Shown here: positions 325 to 59,967 of the stretch, piece after piece
Numbering within the stretch: the first letter of the stretch is position 1
Layout of the letters: each line of letters starts with the position of its first letter
Assembly (NCBI GenBank): GCA_965645245.1
Contig: OZ287067.1
Coordinates: 1,364,001 to 1,428,000 of the forward strand
Source of the DNA: Massalongia carnosa
Lineage: Eukaryota
DNA: 64,000 bases
Reading direction: 5' to 3'
Notes under the pieces: model-generated
What the model saw: the letters and a program-made list of their open reading frames with translations, nothing else
What the model was told of the DNA's origin: nothing
Database searches by the model: none
Made by a program: the position numbers and the translations under genes

Positions 325-1029
325 ATGTCCGCCTCGCCATTATCCTCAGCTGGTGGTCAGGTTGCAAAAGACCAAGAACAGATTACATTTCGCTTCTGTC
401 GCGAATGGTGCGTCAACTTTTGCCTCAGTGATGGACGGTCTTACAACGCTAACATTTTGCAGCTCTAACATGCTCTACCCCAAAGAGGACCGAAATAGCA
501 ACAAACTCATGTTTGCATGCCGGACCTGTCAGTTCAGCGAAGAAGCCAAATCCTCGTGTGTTTTCCGGAACAACCTATATAACATCACCGGTGAGACGGC
601 TGGTGTGACTCAAGATGTTGGATCAGACCCTACGGTTGGTTTTCTCGATTTGTGTACACTCTGCGGTCTGGAGATTGGATGTCTCTTTTGTGGAGCAGGG
701 GACAATAGCTCATTGGAAAATGACCTGACAGAGGACGATATTTTGCCAGAGAAAATCAGGTGGAGGCGTCAAGAGCGGAAGGAACCGGTGGAGGACGCCA
801 GTCATGAATCTTAGCTGACATGGCTTTTGCTACAGCTGCCCCGGTCGAACAAGCGATGTCCAAACTGCAACGAAATGGAAGCGGTGTTTTTTCAGTCGCA
901 ACAGCGATCGGCGGAGACCGGAATGGTGAGGCGATTTCTTTCTTGGTCCACCTAATGCCCGGATGCTTATTCCCTGGGTTATAGAAACTCTTTTACGTCT
1001 GCTGCAGCTGTGGGAAGATTTTCCAATAG
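325..1029 (+). CDS. RPB9: RNA polymerase II subunit Rpb9 (4 exons: 325-407, 463-634, 836-925, 985-1029; 129 aa)
   Basis: Spliced product [73 protein letters not shown] has both Rpb9 zinc ribbons. Introns are GT-AG and the exon lengths sum to 390 nt. Confidence 0.96.
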
Positions 1030-1220: not shown

Positions 1221-1860
1221 TCATACATGCATTGCCGCAAGTGACAAAATCTTTGACCACTGTTTATCTCGAAGCTCGGAACCAACAATGCCTATGATGT
1301 CGTTAGTCCTTGTCTTTCCTCTCAGATATGCGTTGCAGTTCCTTCTCTCGCTTGAAAGATGTACGGGTGACGGCGGAGATGGGTTCGGGCAAGTTCACCA
1401 TTTATTCTAGTGCCCAAGGGCTCTCCGTTCTTGCCAATCAAGGCGCACGCATTATCATCGAATCTTATCACCATGCCATCCTTTCTTTGCAGCTTCTTTT
1501 TCGTTCGAACCACTATCGCATGCCTGATATCCCCTCTCCTGACTTTGTTCCCTGCCGCCGCAGACATTCCACCAATACTACCGAGAGTAGTATCACCAAG
1601 AGACCGCGACTTCTGAACCACGACAATTATTCGATCCCCTTCTAAGCCTTAGCAATTGTGTCTAATCCCAGTATAGAATGATGGTGGAACTGTTTCTACC
1701 GATCTTGGCATGCCGCTTCATGCGTAAATTCGCGACACATTCTACAAGCGTGGCGCCTGAGTTGTCGACACAGTTAAGTATAGTCTGGATTGATAACTCA
1801 TCAGTAAACTCGAAAGCTTACAAGGAGGTCATGTCGCCGATATACCTTGAGTTGTATCAT
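1221..1860 (-). CDS. MRPL38: Mitochondrial ribosomal protein uL14m (4 exons)
   Basis: MIQLK|TILNCVDNSGATLVEC..KIG|DRIIVVVQK..KVRRGDIRHAIVVRTKK..IRFDDNACALI..PLGTRING|IVGSELRDKQWSKILSLAAMHV matches the L14 signature motifs. Confidence 0.93.
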
Positions 1861-2361: not shown

Positions 2362-4448
2362 ATGCCACGATCAACCGGCCCTTACAAAAAGCAGCGTCTA
2401 ACGCTCGCACAGCTGGCAAAATACGATGACATCTTGACAGATACACTTGTTGATCATGTACGTGGCTTCTGAAAGACATTTTTCTAGAAGTGCGACTAGC
2501 AACTGACCGGTGGTAGGTGTACTTCTGGACTATCATTCGCAAAAACCGCCCCAAATACACTCTCACTCGTGGAATCTCGGAGGAAGACGTTCCTGCTATC
2601 CTACTACATGACGTGATTGTAGCCAAAGATCTGCAGAAAGCCGAAGCATCATTGCTCAAACTCGCAGGGCTTCGAAAATATATCGATGGTCTGAAGACTG
2701 ACGGCGAAAAGGAGAGCTTTAAGCGCCATCTGAGCAAATACATTAATATCTGGCTTCCGGAATGTTCGTTTGAGGTCTCTACCACCAATCGTTATACAGT
2801 CGTGACTCATGAGGCAGCGATCACAGCTCGACGATTTATCAAGAAAAACGAAACCATCAAGTACCTCTGTGGATGTCTAGTGTCGATGACGGAGGAGGAG
2901 GAGAAGGATCTGGACCTGACTCGTCGCGACTTTAGCATTGTAATGTCTAGTCGCAAGAAAACGCCATCGCTTTTTTTGGGTCCAGCACGTTTTGCAAATC
3001 ATGATTGCAATGCCAATGCAAGGCTTGTCACTCAGGGGACAGATGGCATGCAAGTGGTAGCAGTACGGGAGATCCAGGTTGGTGAAGAGATTACGGTTAC
3101 CTATGGAGACAGCTATTTTGGAGAAGGGAATTGTGAGTGTCTCTGTTTGACGTGCGAGAAGGAAGGACGCAACGGGTGGCCTCCACGTGTGCCGAGCGTT
3201 GGATCGAGCGGCACAGCTACTCCCTTCGCAGAATCGGAACTAGACGCAACGCGGCCTTACTCATTTCGAAGAACACGGAAGCATGCACAAATCACTGGAA
3301 GTCCTATGTTGGCAACTCCAGAAACAGATCGCGGAAGTCCGAGGAAGCGGAGAAAAGTCAGTGACATTAGAAGTCCCTCGTCTCTCAGTCTCGGTTTCAC
3401 GGACGGCCAGGTAGAAGGTACTGCCATCAAGACCGAACCTTCTAAGTCTGCCTTGAGACATGAGTTTTTAAGTGTTGGTAGCATTGCCAATCCTAGTCCT
3501 GAATCTAGCAACCTTGAACAAAAGATGGGGCCACCGTCTTTAGAGATTAATATTCGTACAAAAACCATTCACGAAGAAATACGATCAAGCGTACAAGCTG
3601 CTTTTGCAATTGAGCAAGAGCGCAGCTTTCAACAAACTCAACGAGACCGTCAATCCAGTGTCAACGCTGCGCTGCAGCCAGAGATCGATGTTAAAACGTC
3701 AGAAGTGCGCGGGAAAGCACCGACTCTTTTGAACACTCCCGATCAGACACCATCGGGATTGCAAACTCCAAGCGCTCCCAGCGACGTCGTCTCGATCTTC
3801 GACCGCGGCATCGTCAACTCCAGCTCCATCACAACCCCAAGCGCCAGCCTTGAAGTAAATGAAATATGGAAAGCCGCCATCGCAGTCTCAGATCAAGGCT
3901 CTGCCTCCGATAGCGAACTATCCGACTTATCTGACGCTGAGGACTTCGACGACGTCAATCACGTCATTATTCGAACATTCAAGCCTCGTCCTAGGCGCGC
4001 CAAGAAATCTAAGATCATACCAACCATTGAAATCGAGAAACCTATCACCACCCGCGTGCCAGGCGACTACATCCGCACCTCGCTCCTTCTGGGTGAGTCA
4101 TATAGCCGCTGGGTCGATTGCCGTACGTGCGCTGGCTGCTGGGTGCAACCTAACGGCTACTTGACGCGAAAGGAATGCCCGCGTTGCGAGCGGCACAGCA
4201 AGCTTTATGGGTATCAATGGCCGAAGACGGAGAAGACCGGAAGGCGCGACCCCGAGGAACGCGTCATGGATCATAGGACTGTCCATCGGTTTGTTCGGCC
4301 GGAGGAGGAGGCGTTGGTCAAGAAGCGGGGGAGGGGCGTTGAGAAAGTGGAGGATAATATTCACACCGAGAGGAGGCCGAGTTCGGGTTTAGAGGGTGAA
4401 AAGGGAAGCACGGGAAGAAGGGGTCGTGGATCCGGGGTTGGAACTTGA
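2362..4448 (+). CDS. SET9: Histone H4K20 methyltransferase Set9/KMT5 (exon 2362-2457, intron, exon 2517-4448)
   Basis: LAKYDDILTDTLVDH|VYFWTIIRK N-terminus, SET motifs RRDFSIVMSSRKK, LFLGPARFANHDCNAN and EEITVTYG..YFG, post-SET CLCLTCE, and fungal C-terminal CPRCERHSKLYGYQWPKT. Confidence 0.95.
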
Positions 4449-7680: not shown

Positions 7681-10504
7681 ATCCTACTCGGTAGTGAGTC
7701 GCAACCAAAAAGTAAACGCAGGGCATGGAAACTTCTGAATTTGGAAAACTTAAGGGAAGCCGAGCGCCACGCACCTCCACCGACGTCTCCCTGCACACCT
7801 GCCGAGATAGATACGAACACAGAATCGATTCAAAAATTCCTACAAAATGTCATCAATGCAGCCGTTCCATGGACGAAACCTAGCGAATATGCTAAGCCTT
7901 TCTGGACAGAAGAATGCAAGATCCAGCGGACTGGTCCAACTACATTGAATCTAATGACAAGAAACAGAAAATTATCCAAAAAGCAAAGAGGACAAATTTT
8001 CGTCAAGAGATCAGTAAGGCTACCGAAACGCCTCAGGGTCTGTGGCGGCTAGCGAAATGGGCCAAAGACAAAAGTCACTCAGCTAGAGAAGTACCCAAAA
8101 TGCCGACTTTAAAGTTCAATAATCAAACAGCAGACACGTTCGATAAGAAAGCCGAAATGCTGAAAAGCATTTTCTTTCCCGCACCACCGGCCGATATAGA
8201 AGGATCCTTCTATCCAGCATCGCCGCACTGTCCAATGATCATCACCAAGTCAGAAGTGTCGAAGGCCCTGCATCGGCTCAAGCCCGATAAAGCACCGGGT
8301 CCTGACGGCATATCTAATAGAGTACTCAAGGCATGCGCGGAAAAACTTGTTGAATTATTAACACCTCTGTTTCAGGCGTGCGTTACACTTTCGTACCATC
8401 CCCGAGCCTTCAAAATGGCAAACACAATAGCATTAAGAAAAATAGACAAAGGAAATTACACCACGCCGAAGGCTTACCGACCAATTGCATTACTCAACAC
8501 GCTCAGCAAAGTAGTGGAATCTATCATAGGATCAAAAATAACCTATTTAGCGGAAACACATCGGCTCCTACCCGACACACAGATGGGAGCGAGAAAGGGC
8601 AGATCTACAGAATCAGCTCTTGAGTTACTAACCGAACAGGTTCACACGATTTGGGGACAAGGAAAAGATAAAGTAGCCACACTTTTAAGCATGGACGTCG
8701 CCGGCGCGTTTGATACAGTTTCACATCAAAGACTAACGCACAATCTACGTAAAAGAAAAATCCCGAAATGGATTACTGATGGCTAAACAGCTTTTTAAAT
8801 GATCGCAGCACAACTCTAGCTATAAATCGAAAAGCGACCGGACGATTCGCGGTGAGAACTGGCATACCACAGGGCTCTCCTCTCTTATCCATTCTTTATC
8901 TATTCTATAATGCAGACCTATTGGAAATATGTGAGCGGCCAGGCACAAACACAAGTGCCATAGGATTTGTAGACGATGCCAACATTTTGCCATACGGAAA
9001 AATCACCGAAGAGAATTGCAAGACTCTGGAGTCAATACACAGACAATGCGAAAAGTGGGCTTCCCGACACGGATCTCTATTCGCTCCGACGAAGTACGAA
9101 CTCATTCACTTGTCTAGAAATCCCAAAAGATTCAATATGGCTGCATCTATCAACATTGCAAGCACCGAAGTTGAACCAAAAACGGACATTAGAGTCTTAG
9201 GCTTGCAAATTGACACCAAATTGAAATGGGGACCGCACGTTCGCAAAGCGCAAAAGAAAATGGTCAAACAATCCATGGCATTGACAAAAATCTCCACATC
9301 GACTTGGGGTGCCACCTTCACCAAAGCAAGGCAAGTTTACAGCGCCGTAGTGCGTCCGGTCTGACATACGGGTCAACCGTATGGCATATGCACAAAGAAG
9401 TCAAAAAGTCAAAAACGTCAACGAGCAAGCTCTCCGTTATGCAAAACTGCCTTCGCAACATAGCCGGTGCCTTTAAAGCCACTCCCATTCCAGTTCTTGA
9501 AGCAGAGACATACATAGCACCCATAGATGTACACCTCGACACGCTACAGGCGCAGGCCAGACATCGACTCCGAGCCGGAGGTCAATCGAAGGTCATTTCT
9601 TCCGCATGCAGCAAAATAGTTAACAAACTCCGAGGCAAGGCAGGTCGCAAACGCCTTCAAAAATCTACTCCGGGAGAGCTGAAGCACACCTAGGCCAAAA
9701 ACTTACTGATCGACGCAAAAATCGTTCAACCACCCAAAGCACACCCACCATGGTCCGACCCCTCCCAAGCGCATCTCCGCGAAGTCTCCGTAGCAGCGTT
9801 GGCTCGTCAAAAACAAATGCAGACAATTAAAGCACGACAGCTGAAAGTCTGGAACGACTCGTGGAGCGCATATCAAAATCGCGTCACCGAACCCTCCATA
9901 GCCCAATCGGTCCCACTGACCAAAAAACGACTGAAAATACACACGCTGCTAAAAAAGGCAGAAAGCGCCCTGAAAACACAGATCCGCACCGGTAAGATCG
10001 GTCTAGCTGACTTCCTCTACCAGCGACGGGTCCCCGCCGTCACCTCACCGGCCTGCCCATGTGGCTGGCACAGAAAAACTCCAGAACACGTAATTATGTT
10101 CTGTAGACTTATTGACAATAGAGAACAGATGTTTCGCGCCGCTGGCACGAACAACTATCAACAGCTGACCGAAGCATCAAAAACTCTAAAGATATTAACT
10201 ACTTGGCTAATGAAAACAGGTCTACTGACCCAATTCTCACTGGCATCTACACTATTGTACAATTAACAGTAGTTTCACTTCTCTTTTCCTTCTTATCTCA
10301 CAAGGCGTCACAGTTCTCACATGATTTTCGCTCTGCGTCTCCAGTCCGACGTCGACCCGGTGTCACATCGGACAGGTATCAAGGGATATGGTTTTTACAC
10401 CTGAAAAAGGTTTTCCATGTAATATAACCTAGATAGCTTTGCCCGCATGGGCCGGCCTACGGCCGGTGACATATCGGAGTATGAATACATCATCATCATC
10501 ATCA
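7681..10504 (+). mobile_element. 5'-truncated, defective non-LTR retrotransposon (Tad1-like LINE ORF2: RT plus C-terminal CCHC; no endonuclease or RNase H visible)
   Basis: RT motifs KAPGPDGI, YRPIALLNTLSK, QMGARKGRST, MDVAGAFDTVSH, GIPQGSPL, GFVDD, IRVLGLQID, followed by FKATPIPVLEAET and CPCG..TPEHVIMFC. Frameshifts near 7920, 8781 and 9359, stop at 9691. (CAT)5 tail at 10488-10502. Confidence 0.93.
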
Positions 10505-24857: not shown

Positions 24858-27800
24858 ATGATGGCACGTCTTGGCAGGTTCGGCTTTTTGGTGTTGGCGG
24901 TGGTATTTCATTTGGTTTATATCTATTCCATTTTCGACATTTATTTTGTCAGCCCTATCGTTAGTGGCATGAAAGCCTTCGAAATCGAACGAAGTAGCAA
25001 TATCGAAGCCCCTGCGCAGAGATTGGTCCTGTTTGTTGGTGATGGCTTGCGGGCTGATAAGGCTTTCCAGTCCTTTGCAGACCCCTCACCATCGGCTCCT
25101 CACGCGCCTGGAGCTCTTGAACCCCGTCCTCTAGCGCCTTTTCTTCGGTCTTGCGTCCTACGACGTGGGACTTTCGGGGTATCCCATACGCGTGTTCCGA
25201 CTGAATCAAGACCTGGGCATGTAGCACTGATCGCTGGGTTATATGAGGATGTCTCCGCGGTGACTACAGGCTGGAAGCTGAATCCAGTGAATTTCGACAG
25301 CGTTTTTAATCGGAGCCGGCATACATGGAGTTGGGGAAGCCCTGATATATTGCCGATGTTTAAGGAAGGTGCTGTTCAAGGACGAGTAGACGCTGATGTC
25401 TATGGAGAGGAGGCGGAGGATTTTACCCAGGGTATACTCCCTCGGAAGAGGTTACATTATAAATGAAAACTGACACTTGGCAGATGCAACGCAGTTGGAC
25501 ACATGGGTATTCGAGAAGGTCAAAGAGATGTTCAGCGCTGCTTTAAAGAATGAAACCCTTGATACTGCACTTCGGCAAGATAGAAACATTTTCTTCCTGC
25601 ACTTGCTGGGTTTAGATACCACCGGTCATGCATATCGTCCATACTCTAATGAATATTTGCACAATATAAAAGTTGTGGACAAAGGACTGAAAGAAATGAC
25701 GAAGCTAATAGACGAGTTTTATGGTGATGGTAAAACCGCTTATGTTTTCACTGCAGATCATGGTATGACCGATTGGGGAAGTCACGGAGACGGCCATCCA
25801 GATAATACTCGCACGCCTTTAGTTGCATGGGGCTCCGGCGTTGCAAAGCCCATTCTCAACTCAACGGGAAAAGCGCTAGGTCACGAAGATGGGTTTTCTT
25901 CGGATTGGGGGCTGGGTCATGTTCAAAGACATGATGTCTCGCAAGCAGACATTGCGACATTGATGGCATATCTTGCCGGACTCGAGTTTCCAGTCAACTC
26001 GGTGGGTGAGCTCCCTCTTTCATATCTTGCTGCAAATCCGAAAGAGAAGGCAGAAGCAGCTCTAGTCAACGCTAGAGGCGTATTAGAGATGTATCGTGTT
26101 AAAGAGGAGGGGAAACGGGCTACCGAGTTGCGTTATAGACCTTTTTCACCACTGGGTGATGAGAAGCATTCGGTAGAGCACCGCGTGAATGAAATAAGAA
26201 CCACGATCGATCAAGGAAAGTATGATCAAGCAATAGCCATGAGCCAGGATTTACTTCATCTTGGACTTGATGGACTACGATATTTACAGATATATGACTG
26301 GCTTTTCTTGCGAGCCCTAGTCACGACTGGATACTTGGGATGGATCGCTTTTGCGCTTACAACTGTCATAGATCTTCATGTACTCCAAGGAAAATCTCGG
26401 ACTTCCCGAACTTCTGCGACATCTGCAGTCTTTGGCGCATTGGTGACCTGTTTCTTCTCGTTTTTATGGATTCGTAAAGCGCCAACAACATTCTATGCCT
26501 ATAGTATATTTTCCCTGGCGCTCTGGGAAGAAGTAATTGCAAGGAGGGAGGCAATACTTCAAGGAAGCCGGGTGCTTCTACAAAAATTTCAATCTAGGAA
26601 AGATCTCATACTGTTGGCATTGAAGACGCTTGCATTTTTTGGGCTATTGGAAGCTCTTGTAAGTATTGTTGCGTCTGTCTTCATCCCTTAGTATCCGGCG
26701 CTAATGTCAACGATCTAGGTGTTATCATATTTCTATCGTACAGTTTACACATTGTGTTTCATAGCGGCAGCAGCTTGGCCAGCGTTTTATGGGTGGAAGT
26801 TCGTCAGTCAGAACAGAATTTTAGTTGCGACTTGGGTTGTCGTTTGTCACTCAATGAGCATTTTCACTCTTTTGCCTGTCATCAAGGTAGAGAATACTGC
26901 GATAATGTAAGTTTAGAAAATCCGCTCCCTTCTTATCTCTTTTTACATCCGAAATGACGTGAGGCTTGCTAAGGAACCAAACCACAGATTGTTAGGAGGC
27001 GTGTTAATGCTCTCTGTCGGTATATTGTATCTTCTCTTCGAAAAAAGCATTTTGTCTTCAATAGGTTCACCATGCGCTGCGATCGATTCTCTCTCAAAAA
27101 GCATCCTTGGAGTACAGATAGGCCTGATTTTGTTAGCCATGATAGTCACGCGCTCCAGCATTGCATCTTTGCAGGCGAAGCGTGGCCTACCGCTGGGTAA
27201 TCAAGTAGTGGGGTGGCTGGTTCTCAGTACGCTGATTTCCCACATCCTTTGATTCATCCATTTACAACCGCTGATTATAGAACTCGATAGTTGGGTCCCT
27301 CTCCCTTCCCTTTCTCCACGGCCTCCGGCCGAACAACCATTATCTCCACCGGCTCGTCATAATCTTCCTAACCTTCTCCCCCGTCTTCATCATCCTCACC
27401 ATTTCCTATGAAGGTATCTTCTACTTTGTCTTCTGCGCCACCCTCTTCACCTGGATCCGCCTCGAACACCACATCCATGCATTCCGCACCTCCTACCACC
27501 CGTCCCCGCTAACCCCACTTTTAACCCCCGAACCACTCACTGCTATCTCTGCCGACCTCCCATCCTCTCCTTCCTACCGCACCCTCTCCCTCGGCGAGCT
27601 CCGCCCCTCCCTCTTCTTCCTCTTTCTCCTTCAATCCGCCTTCTTCTCCACCGGTAACATCGCCTCCATTTCTTCCTTCTCCCTCGACTCCGTCTACCGG
27701 CTCATCCCGATCTTCAACCCTTTCTCTCAAGGCGCTCTACTCCTGCTCAAGCTACTCGTTCCCTTCGCCGTCATCAGTGCCCACCTAGGTATCCTTACCC

Positions 27801-28198
27801 GCCGCCTCGGCGTCCCGCCCAGCTCTCTCTTCATGCCCGTCATGGCCTTTGGCGATGTACTGACCATGAATTTCTTCTGGATGGTGCGCGACGAGGGGAG
27901 TTGGCTGGATATCGGCACGAGCATCAGCCATTTTTGCATCGCGAGCTTGTTGTGTGCGTTTGTAGCTGGATTGGAATTCTTAAGCGAGGTGTTTGTCAGC
28001 GGGGTTGAGTTTGGGTTGGAGGTTGAGAAGGTGAAAGGAGAGGAAGAAGCTGCCATGAGGCGTGATACGGAGGAGAGAATCCAGAACGGGGCTGCGATTG
28101 GAATTCTTCCTGGGAACCCGGATCAGGATGAGGCTGCGCAAATCTCCTCTCCCGTGAAAGGAGGGAAGGAGGAGAACAGGGGGCGGAAGATTATGTGA
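24858..28198 (+). CDS. MCD4: GPI ethanolamine phosphate transferase 1 (PIG-N), 5 exons
   Basis: [64 protein letters not shown], and the PigN C-terminus [30 protein letters not shown]. Confidence 0.96.
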
Positions 28199-33163: not shown

Positions 33164-34668
33164 ATGTCCGCGCCAAGTGCAAGTAAGGATTCCTTGTCGA
33201 GCTCGTCGACTGGTCTGAAATCGCTGGGGAAAGCGTTCGCGAACGTCGATTTGGATGGTCATAACCTACCGCCCTCACCCGCACCTTCAAGCCCCCGGAA
33301 TGGCAAGAAGTACGCATTTGCGACAGAGTTGGTCTATACAGAGAGCAGTGATCAGTACAATGCCAGCAGTGTGCCCATATACCAGGTATGGAGCAAGTAG
33401 AGTCTTCAGGGGTCCTTCGAGGCGCCCCCGACACTCTGTCTGAGCTAATCTTTCCTTCGTGCCGCAGTCCGCCACATTCAAGCAAAGTCCCGGTGGTGGA
33501 GAAGGAGAATATGATTACACAAGATCTGGCAACCCTACACGAACACACCTCGAGCGTCACCTGGCGAAGATCATGTCGGCGGAACGCGCTCTCGTTGTAT
33601 CTTCTGGGATGGGCGCTCTGGACGTAATCACCCGCTTACTCCGGCCAGGAGACGAGGTGGTGACTGGGGATGATCTGTACGGCGGTACGAACCGCTTGTT
33701 AAACTATCTTGCGACAAACGGAGAGATCATTGTCCATCACGTCGACACCACGGTTCCAGAATCTGTTAGGCAAGTCCTGGGACCCAAAACTGCCATGGTG
33801 CTTCTAGAGTCACCCACCAACCCTCTGATCAAGATCGTTGATATCCCGGCAATCGCCACGCTTGCTCACGATGCAAATCCGAATGCGTTGGTGGCGGTGG
33901 ATAACACCATGCTGTCGCCTCTTTTACAGAACCCTCTCGATCTGGGAGCGGATATTGTATACGAAAGCGGCACAAAGTACCTGTCAGGTCATCATGATCT
34001 TATGGCTGGAGTCTTGGCGATCAACAACAGCGCTCTAGGGGAAAAGCTTTACTTCACAATCAACTCTACCGGATGTGGCCTGGCCCCTTTCGACTCGTGG
34101 CTGCTTATGCGAGGCATCAAGACGCTCAAAGTCCGGCTGGAACAACAGCAATCCAACGCTCAGCGGATCGCCGAGTTTCTGGAAGCCCGCGGCTTCCGGG
34201 TGCGATATCCCGGCCTCAAATCGCATCCCCAGTACGAACTCCACAGTTCGATGGCTCGGGGCGCCGGCGCCGTTCTTTCATTCGAAACAGGCGACACCGG
34301 CACCAGCGAGCGAATTGTAGAGGCGGCACGGCTGTGGGCCATTAGTGTGAGTTTTGGATGCGTGAACAGCCTGATCAGCATGCCGTGCCGGATGAGCCAT
34401 GCCAGCATCGATAAAAAGACCAGGCAGGAACGAGCCATGCCGGAAGATATCATTCGATTATGTGTGGGGATTGAAGATGTAGATGATTTGATTGACGACC
34501 TGAGCCGAGCTGTAAGTTTGCTTTGTTTGCTCACCCTCCGTCTGACTTGGGCAGTTCGCTGACGATTCAATGAAGCTGGTGCAAGCGGGTGCAGTGCGCC
34601 TGACGCCCGACGGCGGATTCCATGCGGTTGGCAGGGGAGAAACTTTCAAGGCGTATTGCCATAGATGA
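33164..34668 (+). CDS. STR3: Cystathionine beta-lyase (3 exons)
   Basis: DQYNASSVPIYQ|SATFKQ..YDYTRSGNPTR, DDLYGGT, LESPTNP, VDNTM, PLP-lysine motif YESGTKYLSGHHD, ISVSFGCVNSLISMPC.MSHASI and IIRLCVGIED. Confidence 0.94.
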
Positions 34669-52516: not shown

Positions 52517-52642
52517 GAAAATCCGAAAATATCAATATTTGGACTATCTTACATGTTGAAGCCTTTTCATCATACATTTTCCATACAAAAGTAGCTTCAA
52601 ATAATAAAACTAATCAATATCATCTTATTAAACAGTATAATC

Positions 52643-54654
52643 ATGGCTGTTTGTAAAAAATCCACCTCTAAAAAAACCTCCAAGCTTCCTTCTTCCCACC
52701 CCACCTCCGCGTATCAACAACGATTACAATCAGCTTTTCTGGCCTGGAAACAGACCGACAAGACTCTTTCCATCACGAAGGCAGCTGCTCTGTATGGCGT
52801 TTCAAAGTCCACCCTTCATGCTCGCATTCAGGGTCGTCAACCACGATTTTCATCCGATCAAGTCAGACAGCTGTTGACACCTGAAGAAGAGGACGCTTTG
52901 AAGGACTGTGTTTTACAATTGTACGCCTGGGGCTGGCCTGCTAAAGTCGCTCAATTGCGTCAAATGGCCATCGAATTATTGCGAGCAAGGGGAAATCATA
53001 CTGCCCTGGGAGTTAATTGGCAACAGCATTTTTTACATCGTCATCCCGATTTGCAGGCCAAATATAGTCGCACATTGGATCAGGAACGATTATTTGCGGA
53101 GAACGAAGAGATTTTTAAACATTGGTTCGAGCTTTTTCTTTCCGTCAAACAAAAACACGGAATTCTTGATGAAGACATCTACAATATGGATGAAAAAGGG
53201 TTCATGATGGGGGTGGCCGCTAGTGCTAAAGTGGTAATACCTAAGCACGAAAAGCAGGCCTTTTCAGCACAATCAGGTAATCGAGAATGGGTGTCATTAA
53301 TCGAGGCCATTTCTGCTACTGGACGCAGTCTACCCCTCTTCGTCATTTTCAAAGGGGTAAACAAACTAAAGGCCTGGTTTGATGTTCTGGAAGATATTCA
53401 CAGCGAAATTGCCACCAGTGAAAACGGATGGACAGATAACGAACTAGGTGTCGATTGGTTGAAAAGATGTTTTGAACCTGCTACTGCAAAATATTTACAT
53501 GGTGATTATCGACTTCTGATGGTAGACGGTCATGCTTCTCATATTCTACTGAATTTATCAAGTTTTGCAATGAAAAGAAAATAATTCCTCTATGTCTACC
53601 TCCTCATACTACACATTTACTACAACCTCTAGACGTGAGCGTTTTCGGTCCCCTGTCTCGGGAGTATAAAAAACAACTGGAGGCCGTCACTCGATTCAAC
53701 GTTTGTTCGATTGACAAGGTGGACTTTTTGAAGATCATACAAAAAGCAAGAAAAGAAGCAATCAACACAAAAAACGTGCTCACTGCGTGGAGAGTCACCG
53801 GATTAGTGCCATACAATCCTTCTCTAGTTCTTCAGAAACTCTCTAATAAACAATCGGTGTTGCGAAAGACTGACAGCATAATTACCACTACCATCACCAC
53901 CACTACCACCACCACTACCACCACCACTACTTCCACTTTTACGAATGTCGGAATTGATCCGGAGACCACGTCGGTCTCTGACCCTGACACTCCGATAATT
54001 CAGAGTTCTCAGAAAGCTGTCATCGAGGTGGAAAAGACACCTGCAAATATCGATCAATTAGATCAATTGATTCGTCGAATTCGATCTGATGAGAATTCAG
54101 ACTCGACACCCGCCCGAGCGCTAAACAAATTGATAAAGGGGGCCAAATACGCCTTTGCCGACTCTACCTTGCTACGAATTACCAACAACGAGCTTCTTCA
54201 GGCCAATTTACGGCGGCATCATCGAGCCAATCGTAGCGGGGCTCACTATGGTGGAAAGGCTCGAGTCCTGAGCCTCGAAGACGTTCAACAAAGACAGCAA
54301 TGGGCTAAAACTCAACAGAAGGTGAAGGATGACAAAAAGAAGGCCGCTCAGTTGAAACGAGCGGAGCAGGATCTTATCAAAACCTTCAGAGAAATGTGTC
54401 GATTTGGGCCTGATTTACTAGGACAAACGTCTACACCCCCTACGAAAAGTCCTCAAAAAATTCCCTGTAATTCACAAAGAAGGCCTGTAAGTCCTTCAAA
54501 AGAGTGTTTGTTACCCCCCTTCATGCTTCATCCAATCACGGAGGTGACAGAGACGGTGGAAGGGGCAAAGGAGGTGGTGGAGGTGGTTGAGGTGGTGAAG
54601 GAGGTTCAAACTACCAGACGGGGTCGTATTGTTCGTCCACCACGTAAAATGTGA
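52643..54654 (+). pseudogene. pogo/Fot1 DDD transposase with one apparent 1-nt deletion near 53545
   Basis: HTH-psq (ITKAAALYGVSKSTLHAR), CENP-B-type HTH (LTPEEE..GWP..GVNW..FL.RHP), YNMDEKGF, NGWTDN, LMVDGHASH, then after the frameshift STEFIKFC..LPPHTTHLLQPLDVSVFGPL. Confidence 0.93.
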
Positions 54655-58935: not shown

Positions 58936-59967
58936 ATGGAGAAAACCCCTGCTGTTACCCCATCCCATGAAGAACATCAGTACCTTACTCTGATAAAAAG
59001 CATCCTTGAACGTGGCGAGCATCGTCCCGACAGGTTTGAAGCCCCTTATATATTGAATTCATCTCCAGTCTAAAGGCTTTTTAGGACTGGGACAGGCACT
59101 CTTTCGGTCTTCGCTCCCTCTGCGCTTCGCTTTTCCCTATCGCGACAACCTATCGATCAATCTAAAAGCCCAACCCCCATCCTCCCTCTCCTAACCACTA
59201 AAAGGGTCTTTCTCCGCGCAGTTATTGCTGAACTGCTTTGGTTCATCTCAGGCTCAACATCCTCGCTTCCATTATCCAATGCAGGTATCAAAATCTGGGA
59301 TGGCAACGGGAGCCGCGAATATTTGGACAGCGTGGGCTTGGCGCATCGAGAGGTTGGAGACCTAGGGCCAGTATATGGTTTTCAATGGCGGCATTTCGGC
59401 GCGGAGTACGTCAATGCGAAGACCGACTATACTGGTCAAGGAGTCGATCAGTTGGCTGAAGTAATCGACAAGCTGAATAACAAACCGTATGATCGGCGAA
59501 TCATTCTCAGTGCGTGGAACCCTGCAGACCTCAAGAAAATGGCCCTGCCTCCTTGTCATATGTTTGCACAATTTTATGTCTCCTTTCCACGCTCTTCGTC
59601 TGTGAATAGCAATGGCAACCAATCCATCAAGCCACGTGGTATTCTCTCTTGTCAGCTCTATCAGCGCTCGTGCGATATGGGCTTAGGCGTACCCTTTAAC
59701 ATTGCGTCTTACGCCCTCCTCACCCATATGCTTGCTCATGTGTGTGACTTAACCCCAGGAACGTTCATACATACAATGGGAGACGCCCACATATACCTCG
59801 ATCACGTGGATGCATTAAAGGTTCAACTGGAGCGAGAGCCAAGAGAATTCCCTGAACTAACTATCGAAAGGGAAAGGGGGGGCAAAATTGATGGGTGGAA
59901 GGCGGAAGACTTTGAGATCAAAAACTATAAGCCGCATCCAGGAATCAACATGAAGATGAGTGTGTAA
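58936..59967 (+). CDS. CDC21: Thymidylate synthase (2 exons)
   Basis: [84 protein letters not shown] and GDAHIY. Confidence 0.97.

Follow-up and report, generated by a model that had tools for sequence, protein, structure and literature searches.

A conserved in-frame module in intron 2 of RPB9 as a probable alternative C-terminus of a Pol II subunit in filamentous fungi

The RPB9 gene and its second intron

The window analysed here (64,000 nt of contig OZ287067.1 from Massalongia carnosa, positions 1,364,001 to 1,428,000) carries RPB9, which encodes a subunit of RNA polymerase II (Pol II), in four exons on the forward strand. The features of the locus, numbered from the first letter of the window, are as follows.

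325..407, + strand: RPB9 exon 1, 27 residues and then the first two bases of a Cys codon; the N-terminus matches aligned full-length relatives
408..462, + strand: RPB9 intron 1, 55 nt, GTGCGT...CAG
463..634, + strand: RPB9 exon 2, the remaining Zn1 ribbon and the linker, ending in ..GSDPT; Pfam Zn_ribbon_RPB9, PF02150, E 1e-6
635..835, + strand: RPB9 intron 2, 201 nt, GTTGGT..TACAG; spliced out of the canonical mRNA, an alternative C-terminus if retained
635..640, + strand: donor of intron 2, GTTGGT, non-consensus, doubling as Val-Gly codons
635..694, + strand: Cys4 module, 20 residues, in frame and conserved; Cys codons at 653-655, 662-664, 680-682 and 689-691
695..811, + strand: acidic tail, 39 residues, under weak constraint
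812..814, + strand: TAG stop of the retained-intron frame, from sequence and translation
814..819, + strand: GCTGAC, branch-point-like (CTRAC), 16 nt upstream of the acceptor; its first base is the G of the TAG stop
836..925, + strand: RPB9 exon 3, 30 residues, first part of the TFIIS-type C-ribbon; Pfam Zn_ribbon_TFIIS, PF01096, E 6e-9
926..984, + strand: RPB9 intron 3, 59 nt, GTGAGG...TAG
985..1029, + strand: RPB9 exon 4, 14 residues and TAG, second knuckle of the C-ribbon; conserved in the related loci

In the N-terminal zinc ribbon of Rpb9, the first CxxC straddles the junction of exons 1 and 2. Once intron 2 is removed, LPRSNK.. follows directly on ..GSDPT, and the product is the canonical Rpb9 of 129 aa, made up of the Zn1 ribbon, a linker and the TFIIS-type Zn2 ribbon; both the N-terminal ribbon (PF02150) and, after ..DPTLPR.., the C-terminal TFIIS-type ribbon (PF01096) are recognized in the spliced product. 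An earlier, sequence-only reading of this DNA had placed intron 2 between the two ribbons, after DPT, and the Pfam matches in exons 2 and 3 agree. Its further observations, an intron of 201 nt with a weak GTTGGT donor and a frame of 59 open codons whose stop at 812-814 overlaps GCTGAC, are all borne out by the sequence and its translation. The role of GCTGAC as a branch point is our assumption from the fungal consensus.

The frame of exon 2 continues into intron 2 and stays open over positions 635-811, ending at the TAG. Exon 1, exon 2 and the intron frame together give a retained-intron product of 28 + 57 + 59 = 144 aa, the length that the same reading had predicted, and the TFIIS-type C-ribbon is absent from it by construction. 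In the intron-encoded part, a module whose two CxxC(G) knuckles are separated by four residues comes first and the acidic tail second. The stop lies upstream of the spliceable intron 3, which could expose a retained-intron mRNA to nonsense-mediated decay.

The suggestion that intron 2 is unusually long was checked among the RPB9 introns of this gene and its relatives, and it holds there: its length has a median of 211 nt (range 169-526, n=53), whereas the medians of introns 1 and 3 are 53 nt (n=43) and 56 nt (n=46). The donors set intron 2 apart as well, since 45 of the 53 distinct intron-2 donors read GTNGGT; G at position +4 is likewise found in 45/53 of them, compared with 1/43 for intron 1 and 3/52 for intron 3. 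Position +5 is G in all 53 distinct intron-2 donors and in all 52 intron-3 donors. As judged from this comparison, the intron 2 donor is a conserved, sub-optimal, non-consensus GTNGGT. For rpb9 of S. pombe, four introns are given in the accessible part of PMC13300194.

Conservation of the intron frame and competing explanations

Relatives were recovered by whole-query and HMM searches; a word search with the intron peptide alone matched only the window's ORF call, the relatives being missed because too few exact words are shared. For the comparison of introns, 67 related loci were retrieved by exon-2 peptide patterns only, a procedure blind to intron content; 58 of these allowed intron 2 to be delimited and contributed 51 distinct introns. 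An AG acceptor followed by canonical exon 3 is found here and in 58/58 delimitable loci, and the canonical C-ribbon exons are intact downstream of intron 2 in the relatives. Two stop-to-stop ORF calls, P0002 from the window's contig and P0003 from the contig of a close relative, are not intron-aware and were excluded from support.

CxxCG occurs in the exon-2 frame in 47 of the 51 distinct introns and in either of the other frames in none (0/51). Among the loci, the distance from DPT to the first Cys ranges from 5 to 34 codons, with indels that keep the frame; over 343 distinct post-DPT continuations, a collection whose retrieval was biased toward the module and which shows 31 different spacer lengths, it ranges from 5 to 69 residues. 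Among the distinct introns, the open run has a median of 53 codons in the exon-2 frame versus 27 and 18 in the other two. Chance, in so long an intron, might account for the length of the open run in the window, as 59 or more open codons arose in 2.9% of 200,000 shuffles of the intron interior, a rate that is no surprise given how many introns a genome holds. The arrangement CxxC-x3-6-CxxC arose in only 0.0035% of the same shuffles, and the motif recurs in frame in the great majority of independent introns (47/51). Chance has a negligible probability as an explanation and is ruled out by the comparative data.

Over 18 codons around the motif, entropy averages 1.23 bits at the first, 1.00 at the second and 1.61 at the third codon position; the invariant Cys, Cys and Gly codons change at position 3 only, and all four Gly codons are used. 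Omega was estimated by the Nei-Gojobori method in a lichen-type and a Helotiales-type set, giving 0.064 and 0.041 for exon 2, 0.30 and 0.15 for the module (~20 codons), and 0.58 and 0.65 for the distal tail. Reading the module in a shifted frame raised omega to 0.58-1.97. By this measure, clear constraint is limited to the first ~20 residues (~30 in some lineages), and the distal acidic tail is weakly constrained and nearly neutral. In a close relative the distal tail is frameshifted (P0003), and tails after the module have median fractions of 0.29 for D+E and 0.08 for K+R (n=287). The comparison that the sequence-only reading had proposed, of frame, cysteines and dN/dS below 1 in orthologous introns, thus came out in its favor, with 47/51 introns in frame and module omega of 0.15-0.30. 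Taken with the frame and codon data, these values make it likely that intron 2 of RPB9 holds a real, selected, protein-coding alternative C-terminus.

The same data bear on whether the conserved stretch could be an RNA or DNA element, such as a structured RNA close to the donor or an enhancer or silencer of splicing, whose resemblance to a protein is incidental. The conserved block does begin at the 5′ splice site, and its Val-Gly belongs to the donor. The codon evidence speaks against this: most variation falls at third positions, all four Gly codons are in use, and the module read in shifted frames has an omega of 0.58-1.97. In many lineages, moreover, the block stands 12-69 codons from the donor and is nevertheless in frame. 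We regard such an element as very improbable.

Another explanation is unproductive splicing. Retention of intron 2, whether regulatory or leaky, would expose a stop that leads to mRNA decay and tunes the level of Rpb9, and the peptide would have no function; a weak donor and a long intron in all lineages, a stop upstream of intron 3 and a nearly neutral distal tail are what such a device would show. As in decay-coupled splicing elsewhere, retention adds a premature stop ahead of another intron. For that purpose, however, a stop codon alone would suffice, which leaves unexplained the invariant Cys and Gly with synonymous-only change, the module omega of 0.15-0.30, the 31 frame-keeping spacer lengths and the median of 53 open codons versus 27 and 18. 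Decay-coupled introns are expected to be otherwise unconstrained, whereas in the RPB9 intron frame purifying selection acts on the protein sequence. Overall, we consider unproductive splicing unlikely.

The module could also be an internal insertion between the linker and the C-ribbon, produced by a downstream in-frame donor or by full in-frame retention. Deposited models from Cryomyces (217-235 aa) and Rutstroemia (P0160) carry both module and C-ribbon, and splicing from an in-frame GTGGAG at 788-793 of the window would reduce the intron to 48 nt. GTGGAG has A at +5, however, where all 53 intron-2 and all 52 intron-3 donors have G. An in-frame downstream donor on a par with real donors was found in 1/49 loci, the same count as out of frame, in what is a rough test with a donor score matrix over-fitted to reference donors from two conserved exon contexts. 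Full in-frame retention is opposed by intron lengths that vary modulo 3 (207, 223, 217, 185, 269 nt and others) and by a stop that precedes the acceptor in almost all loci. An insertion is, in our judgment, quite unlikely. An alternative C-terminus that ends within the intron is the reading pursued below, and the best explanation of the data is that RPB9 encodes two proteins here and in much of 'leotiomyceta'.

Predicted metal site, distribution and variants of the module

The window carries all four cysteines of the module as two CxxC knuckles, and they are predicted to bind one zinc. Its intron peptide matched no Pfam family; for the module members as a group, the best Pfam E-value was 0.003, with hits spread over 25 families and none significant. 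A PDB profile search of the module gave no significant chain (best E 0.14), the best entries being rubredoxin, archaeal RNAP subunit P and the XPA zinc finger (E 0.14-0.9). With rubredoxin-type and zinc-ribbon knuckles the module has the CxxCG signature in common. Its spacing, C-x2-C-x5-C-x2-C, is shorter than in the folds of rubredoxin, RNAP subunit P and XPA, and, unlike rubredoxin-type sites, many module lineages keep just three or two Cys.

In an AlphaFold2 model built on a 60-row alignment, the 20-residue knuckle reached pLDDT 83-87, with 56-71 elsewhere, and Foldseek with this model returned nothing below E 2 (best E 2.1). The full isoform (P0013, 37 rows) was modeled poorly, at mean pLDDT 59 and 52-60 over the module, and was left out of the fold search. 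Comparison of the module with the canonical C-ribbon in hhalign gave a probability of 4%, both sequences being very short. The tail of P0013 had ESM Atlas scores of 0.79-0.83, below threshold, and the matches listed were all Ascomycota RPB9 clusters.

The C-terminal ribbons of TFIIS, of A12.2 in Pol I and of C11 in Pol III are paralogous and occupy an equivalent position on their polymerases. These are likewise Cys4 sites with CxxC knuckles, but their knuckles lie ~25 residues apart around a beta-hairpin, whereas those of the RPB9 intron module are separated by 4 residues. Relative to canonical Rpb9/POLR2I, the isoform comes from the same gene and keeps the entire Zn1 ribbon and linker, and it trades the Zn2 ribbon of exons 3-4 for the ~20-aa module and the acidic tail.

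A module profile of 35 positions, run against 1.84 billion representatives, gave 40 matches at E<=1e-3; with the exception of P0318, these are ORFs or fragments of RPB9 that begin within the intron. The longer consensus drawn from these matches reads ..P-x-F-CT[LM]CGQEI-x-C-x-x-CG-x-x-[TS]D-x-G-x-x-LE[VA]-x-D. Named records place the module in Lecanoromycetes (Lobaria, Xylographa, Teloschistales and others), Leotiomycetes (Botrytis, Sclerotinia, Rhynchosporium, Cadophora and others) and Dothideomycetes (Macrophomina, Elsinoe, Trichodelitschia, Cryomyces and others), as well as in Coniocybomycetes and Thelocarpales. The frame, the Cys and Gly residues and the synonymous-only variation are kept over at least four fungal classes, and the sampled relatives lie outside Sordariomycetes, Eurotiomycetes and the early-diverging classes. 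Evolution has thus kept the module as a protein in many filamentous fungi, which probably make a second form of Rpb9.

The Cys4 pattern is not universal in the sequences compared. Among the 343 post-DPT continuations, four Cys are found in 160 and three in 113, the latter including the whole Helotiales type (CLLCG-x4-C-EGR); a further 29 keep CxxCG only (two Cys), 28 have no Cys, and 13 are spliced canonical proteins. Four loci (L055, L057, L061 and L062) have lost the module, with a stop after 6 codons of the intron, and at L053 a decayed module adjoins a consensus GTGAGT donor. Such repeated loss is a further point in favor of unproductive splicing.

Cys-rich tails on predicted fungal Rpb9 proteins, which the sequence-only reading had mentioned, are present in many deposited gene models. 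Models that end in the alternative tail include Botrytis cinerea Bcrpb9, Sclerotinia SS1G_08937, Macrophomina EKG10879.1 and one from Lobaria immixta. The Bcrpb9 record of Botrytis cinerea B05.10 is the alternative form; for Sclerotinia, the older SS1G_08937 is alternative and the later sscle_14g100710 canonical. Public annotations are therefore split between both Rpb9 forms, so that orthology tables and comparative studies of Rpb9 mix two proteins.

Traces of expression and a possible second form of Pol II

None of the sequencing runs listed for positions 250-1150 of the window is of RNA; the four compared (X1-X4) consist of DNA-like contigs with all introns present and no joints or differences, and they carry no information on expression. 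In a JGI/IMG protein, P0123, from contigs of at most 985 nt, exon 1 is joined to exon 2 and the intron-2 frame follows. P0123 is identical to the translation of a related locus (L041) whose 891-kb contig contains intron 1, and six more IMG proteins (P0131, P0150, P0224, P0238, P0240 and P0241) have the same make-up. Gene calling at IMG presumably involves no splicing; two IMG ORFs, P0075 and P0252, run straight through intron 1, which is consistent with this. These records are indirect support for retention of intron 2 at the RNA level, and the retained mRNA would presumably be translated.

In the searchable supplementary table of a genome-wide splicing survey of Sclerotinia sclerotiorum, Sscle14g100710 is listed with a single transcript of 387 nt, the length of the canonical CDS. 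The canonical transcript standing alone in that table speaks against the isoform and would suit unproductive splicing. The accessible supplements of two Botrytis splicing papers contain no 'rpb9' entry, and gene identifiers may be used there instead. No description of the alternative tail was found in the literature on Rpb9 isoforms, alternative splicing and fungal intron retention, and no paper naming Bcrpb9 was found. On the comparative evidence, the retained-intron Rpb9 isoform is probably real and ancient, and it is apparently undescribed.

Rpb9 is linked to start-site choice, transcription fidelity, the response to TFIIS and one branch of transcription-coupled repair, and its Zn2 ribbon is tied to fidelity, TFIIS response and turnover of Rpb1. 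We propose that splicing of intron 2 would give the canonical 129-aa protein, and that on retention the ribosome would continue past DPT into the ~20-aa two-knuckle module and then into an acidic, largely disordered tail, stopping within the intron (at 144 aa here). With Zn1 and the linker retained, the isoform would presumably still assemble on Pol II, where the mini-knuckle and acidic tail would substitute for Zn2. According to yeast work cited in PMC9638876, Zn1 and the linker (residues 1-52) are enough for the Rpb9 functions tested there and Zn2 (C75/78/103/106) is dispensable. The resulting polymerase may differ in properties that depend on Zn2, namely fidelity, TFIIS response and Rpb1 turnover, or may gain a new docking site. 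For this specific Pol II-variant mechanism we find the case evenly balanced.

A broader proposal, which we hold more tentatively and with some doubt, is that of an ancient splice switch in Rpb9, going back to the common ancestor of Dothideomycetes, Leotiomycetes and Lecanoromycetes, in which Zn2 would be swapped for a mini zinc knuckle and an acidic tail to give a second, condition-dependent population of Pol II. At the Pol II jaw and funnel, the new tail of such a switch might act as a nucleic-acid mimic, as a competitor of TFIIS or as an acidic dock for a repair or initiation factor. Pol II subunit variants are rare. If a second form of Rpb9 is conserved across several fungal classes, one gene and one splicing decision could create two kinds of Pol II in many filamentous fungi, well-studied plant pathogens and the majority of lichen fungi included.

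In fungi, alternative splicing gives rise to cryptic C-terminal extensions, for instance in the peroxisomal forms of glycolytic enzymes. There too, one gene gives two C-termini through an unused splice site, kept across fungal classes. The glycolytic enzymes gain a short targeting signal, whereas the Rpb9 isoform would exchange a folded domain of a core transcription subunit.

RPB9 and the reading frame of its second intron

RPB9 lies on the + strand of the window in four exons, and its fully spliced product is a 129-aa Rpb9, the canonical form, in which a first zinc ribbon (Zn1) and a linker are followed by a TFIIS-type ribbon (Zn2).

RPB9 in the window
325-407, +, exon 1
408-462, +, intron 1, 55 nt
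463-634, +, exon 2, Pfam Zn_ribbon_RPB9 match
635-835, +, intron 2, 201 nt, GTTGGT...GCTGAC...TACAG
836-925, +, exon 3, Pfam Zn_ribbon_TFIIS match
926-984, +, intron 3, 59 nt
985-1029, +, exon 4, stop codon included

Intron 2 is open in the exon-2 frame over 59 codons, up to a TAG stop at 812-814, and its retention would therefore yield a 144-aa protein, the alternative form. The sequence-only reading had described a 201-nt intron with a 59-codon frame, a Cys4 pattern, a stop and a 144-aa product, all of which are present. The length of the frame is by itself unremarkable, since 2.9% of 200,000 shuffles of this intron were open for at least 59 codons; the Cys4 pattern was rare, appearing in 0.0035% of them.

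Querying proteins with exon 2 joined to the intron ORF (P0001) gave 652 matches, and many of the 120 listed had alignments reaching far past exon 2. In an alignment of 24 proteins, the tail following DPT, the last exon-2 residues, is conserved as V-G-(L/I)-P-D-F-C-T-L-C-G-x-E-I-x-C-x-x-C-G, with C64, C67 and G68 invariant. Because proteins found using the tail itself are a biased set, we scanned DNA with patterns from exon 2 alone (SE[EDP]AxS[SA]CVF and M[FY][AS]CRTCQ), obtaining 67 loci. Both ends of intron 2 could be placed in 58 of these (not in the other nine), giving 51 distinct introns, and canonical exon 3 (LPRSNK.CP.C...AVFFQ) follows an AG acceptor in every delimited locus. One locus, L065, has no introns at all and is either a cDNA or an intron-less gene. 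CxxCG occurs in the exon-2 frame in 47 of the 51 introns and never (0 of 51) in either alternative frame, with a median open length of 53 codons against 27 and 18, which bears out the conserved frame proposed for orthologous introns. Spacers of 31 different lengths, 5 to 69 residues, separate DPT from the first Cys, and all are in frame. A chance open frame is excluded. At the level of conserved reading frames, one RPB9 gene encodes two conserved C-termini, with removal or retention of intron 2 as the predicted choice between them. Conserved retained-intron isoforms are a known phenomenon, here in a core Pol II subunit; in open full text, we found no description of this Rpb9 tail.

Selection on the module and splicing signals of intron 2

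The intron-2 frame comprises a Cys4 (CxxCG) segment of about 20 residues, the module, and a distal tail. Omega was computed by the pairwise Nei-Gojobori method for 11 lichen-type and 15 Helotiales-type sequences, the pairs not being independent.

Omega by region (lichen-type; Helotiales-type)
Exon 2: 0.064; 0.041
Module (about 20 columns): 0.30; 0.15
Distal tail: 0.58; 0.65
Module frame-shifted +1: 1.56; 0.66
Module frame-shifted +2: 0.58; 1.97

With an omega of 0.15-0.30, the module is clearly under purifying selection, in line with the dN/dS below 1 to which the sequence-only reading had looked. Change in the invariant Cys, Cys and Gly codons is confined to the third base, all four Gly codons being used, and mean entropy around the motif is 1.23, 1.00 and 1.61 bits at codon positions 1, 2 and 3 (43 distinct segments, L065 being canonical exon 4 and L064 anchored on the second knuckle). 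The alternative that the conserved stretch is an RNA element does not fit, being at odds both with this third-position pattern and with the variable-length in-frame spacers.

Constraint on the distal tail is weak. The tail is acidic (median D+E 0.29, K+R 0.08, n=287) and shifts frame after ..ILPEK in P0003, from a close relative of the window. A motif ..F-D-L-(S/N)-E-M-S-(H/R)-M-E-E-E.. is common to P0094, P0096, P0119, L016, L023 and L049, a Parmeliaceae and Lepraria-like sub-group in which CxxCG alone remains; some stretches of the tail are therefore kept within lineages. The Helotiales-type tail frequently closes with ..(A/M)(K/R)MQKL and a stop (L034, L044, L045, L054, P0128, P0131, P0140, P0141 and others); this may reflect the branch-point region, with the stop within CTAAC/CTGAC, rather than protein selection.

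In every locus, intron 2 is three to four times as long as its neighbours (median 211 nt, range 169-526, versus 53 nt in intron 1 and 56 nt in intron 3). The intron-2 donor reads GTNGGT in 45 of 53 distinct sequences and doubles as code for the conserved Val-Gly. G at donor position +4 is found in 45/53 second introns, 1/43 first and 3/52 third introns, and T at +3 in 27/53, 0/43 and 4/52, respectively. A conserved poor donor and a long intron are as expected if some transcripts must retain intron 2. Decay-coupled unproductive splicing would account for the weak donor and the stop but leaves the amino-acid constraint of the module unexplained.

An insertion isoform, with module and Zn2 in one protein, is suggested by gene models in Rutstroemia and Cryomyces; those of C. 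minteri and C. antarctica (P0325, P0338, P0340, P0341; 217-235 aa) combine the Cys module, a strongly acidic segment and the canonical C-ribbon within a single frame. This arrangement is not general, because intron phase varies, stops lie upstream of the acceptor and in-frame donors further downstream show no enrichment (1/49 loci in a rough test). In Cryomyces, rock-inhabiting Dothideomycetes, the segment may be constitutively included, or an open intron may have been read through during gene calling.

Distribution, variation and predicted nature of the module

A module-only profile (A3, 35 positions) run against 1.84 billion representative proteins gave 40 matches at E<=1e-3, of which 39, by inspection, are RPB9 reading frames or fragments beginning inside the intron; the other is P0318, a repetitive 532-aa protein. 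On this search, the module is specific to RPB9. Divergent matches extend the consensus to (I/V)P-x-F-C-T-(L/M)-C-G-Q-E-I-x-C-x-x-C-G-x-x-(T/S)-D-x-G-x-(W/F/L)-L-E-(V/A)-x-D, and in one sub-group ..E-(K/R)-R-E-R-A-L-S-G.. occurs as a further motif in the distal part; in the window, a degenerate ..SSLEND.. stands where the consensus has ..WLEVED...

Named carriers of the module
Lecanoromycetes: Lobaria, Pseudocyphellaria, Xylographa, Pleopsidium, Lepraria, many Teloschistales
Leotiomycetes: Botrytis cinerea B05.10 'Bcrpb9' (ATZ58655.1, 112 aa), Sclerotinia SS1G_08937, Rhynchosporium, Cadophora, Lachnellula, Hymenoscyphus, Amorphotheca, Clarireedia
Dothideomycetes: Macrophomina phaseolina, Elsinoe, Trichodelitschia, Acrodontium, Cryomyces, Eremomyces
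Coniocybomycetes: Sclerophora, Chaenotheca
Thelocarpales: named members present

All fall within the NCBI clade 'leotiomyceta'. The sole sordariomycete protein among the records, P0214, is a spliced model with the intron hidden. The Cys-rich Rpb9 tails that the earlier reading mentioned do exist in public protein records, some named rpb9. Its four conserved cysteines held in part: among 343 distinct continuations after DPT, 160 have four Cys, 113, all Helotiales, have three (VGLPLCLLCG-x4-C-EGR), 29 have CxxCG alone, 28 have no Cys motif and 13 are canonical spliced proteins, proportions that are not prevalences because most proteins were retrieved using the module.

Loss takes several forms. 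L055, L057, L061 and L062 stop after six codons (VRLLSF*) and have a GTTCGT donor, and in L053 the motif has decayed beside a consensus GTGAGT donor; module loss may accompany donor change. Among protein records (P0124, P0189, P0200, P0218 in this group), those of Pseudogymnoascus likewise have an early stop, a Cadophora record has Tyr for Cys, and powdery-mildew records are without the motif.

The window intron peptide matched no Pfam family, and the A3 members were spread over 25 zinc-finger-like families (best E 0.003). Against PDB, the module profile reached the knuckles of rubredoxin, archaeal RNAP subunit P and XPA at E 0.14 or worse, and hhalign with the canonical Rpb9 C-ribbon gave 4% probability. 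AlphaFold2 modelling of P0322, a fragment starting at the module, with a 60-row alignment picked to hold four-Cys forms, returned pLDDT values of 83-87 over residues 1-20 and 56-71 elsewhere; Foldseek with this model returned nothing below E 2. The module is probably a compact CxxC(G) knuckle pair binding one metal ion, followed by a tail predicted to be disordered and acidic.

Indirect evidence of expression, proposed mechanism and neighbouring genes

The four sequencing runs matched to the window's RPB9 stretch are DNA-like contigs, and the signs that the retained form is expressed are indirect. P0123, a JGI/IMG protein whose contigs do not exceed 985 nt, joins exon 1 to exon 2 and continues into the intron-2 ORF; its sequence equals the translation of L041, which lies on an 891-kb contig carrying a 52-nt intron 1. 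IMG gene calling does no splicing, which fits the IMG ORFs P0075 and P0252 running through intron 1 unspliced, and the simplest source of P0123-type proteins would therefore be cDNA-like contigs that have lost intron 1 and kept intron 2. Another six IMG proteins share this arrangement (P0131, P0150, P0224, P0238, P0240, P0241); since some genomes have no intron 1 (L016-18, L021, L023-26, L037, L049, L051-52), P0123 is the only controlled case. P0206 represents the opposite state, lacking introns 1 and 2 and still carrying intron 3. Against expression of the retained form, a table of a Sclerotinia splicing survey gives one 387-nt transcript for the RPB9 gene and no second form.

Deposited annotations are mutually inconsistent. 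The alternative form is annotated in Botrytis B05.10 and the older Sclerotinia model SS1G_08937, the canonical form in the later sscle_14g100710 and several other Sclerotiniaceae records; in Clarireedia, one assembly annotates rpb9 at 132 aa together with a 129-aa 'variant 2', and the 113-aa alternative form stands in another record.

In Rpb9, elongation and repair are associated with Zn1 and the linker; Rpb1 degradation, fidelity and the TFIIS response are associated with Zn2. The alternative protein would keep Zn1 and the entire linker up to DPT, which in yeast are enough for the Rpb9 functions tested in one study, the Zn2 cysteines being dispensable there (PMC9638876); it should therefore still bind Pol II. 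The mini-knuckle and acidic tail would then stand in for Zn2 at the jaw/funnel, giving a Pol II without Zn2-dependent properties and perhaps with a new interaction surface. The isoform could also act away from the polymerase, for example as a competitor for the Rpb9 site.

Other features of the window
1322-1648, -, on upstream to about 1817: L14p/L23e-family ribosomal protein gene (Pfam E 1.7e-23), adjoining RPB9
2517-4448, +: SET-domain protein gene near RPB9
7896-8786, +: mobile-element remnant, reverse-transcriptase ORF (RVT_1, E 9e-14)
25474-28198, +: intron-split PIG-N GPI-anchor transferase
33444-34562, +: Cys/Met-metabolism PLP enzyme
52595-54654, +: mobile-element remnant, pogo/Tc5-like DDE_1 transposase
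59074-59967, +: thymidylate synthase

The L14p/L23e-family gene is probably that of mitochondrial uL14, apparently with one or more introns. In Chaenotheca gracillima, an alternative-form RPB9 record (P0212) bears the name 'Histone-lysine N-methyltransferase set9', which looks transferred from an adjoining or fused gene model and hints at a conserved RPB9/SET-domain gene order. The DDE_1 domain is split over two overlapping ORFs, so the transposase is probably broken by a frameshift; the thymidylate synthase, PLP enzyme and PIG-N genes are ordinary housekeeping genes.
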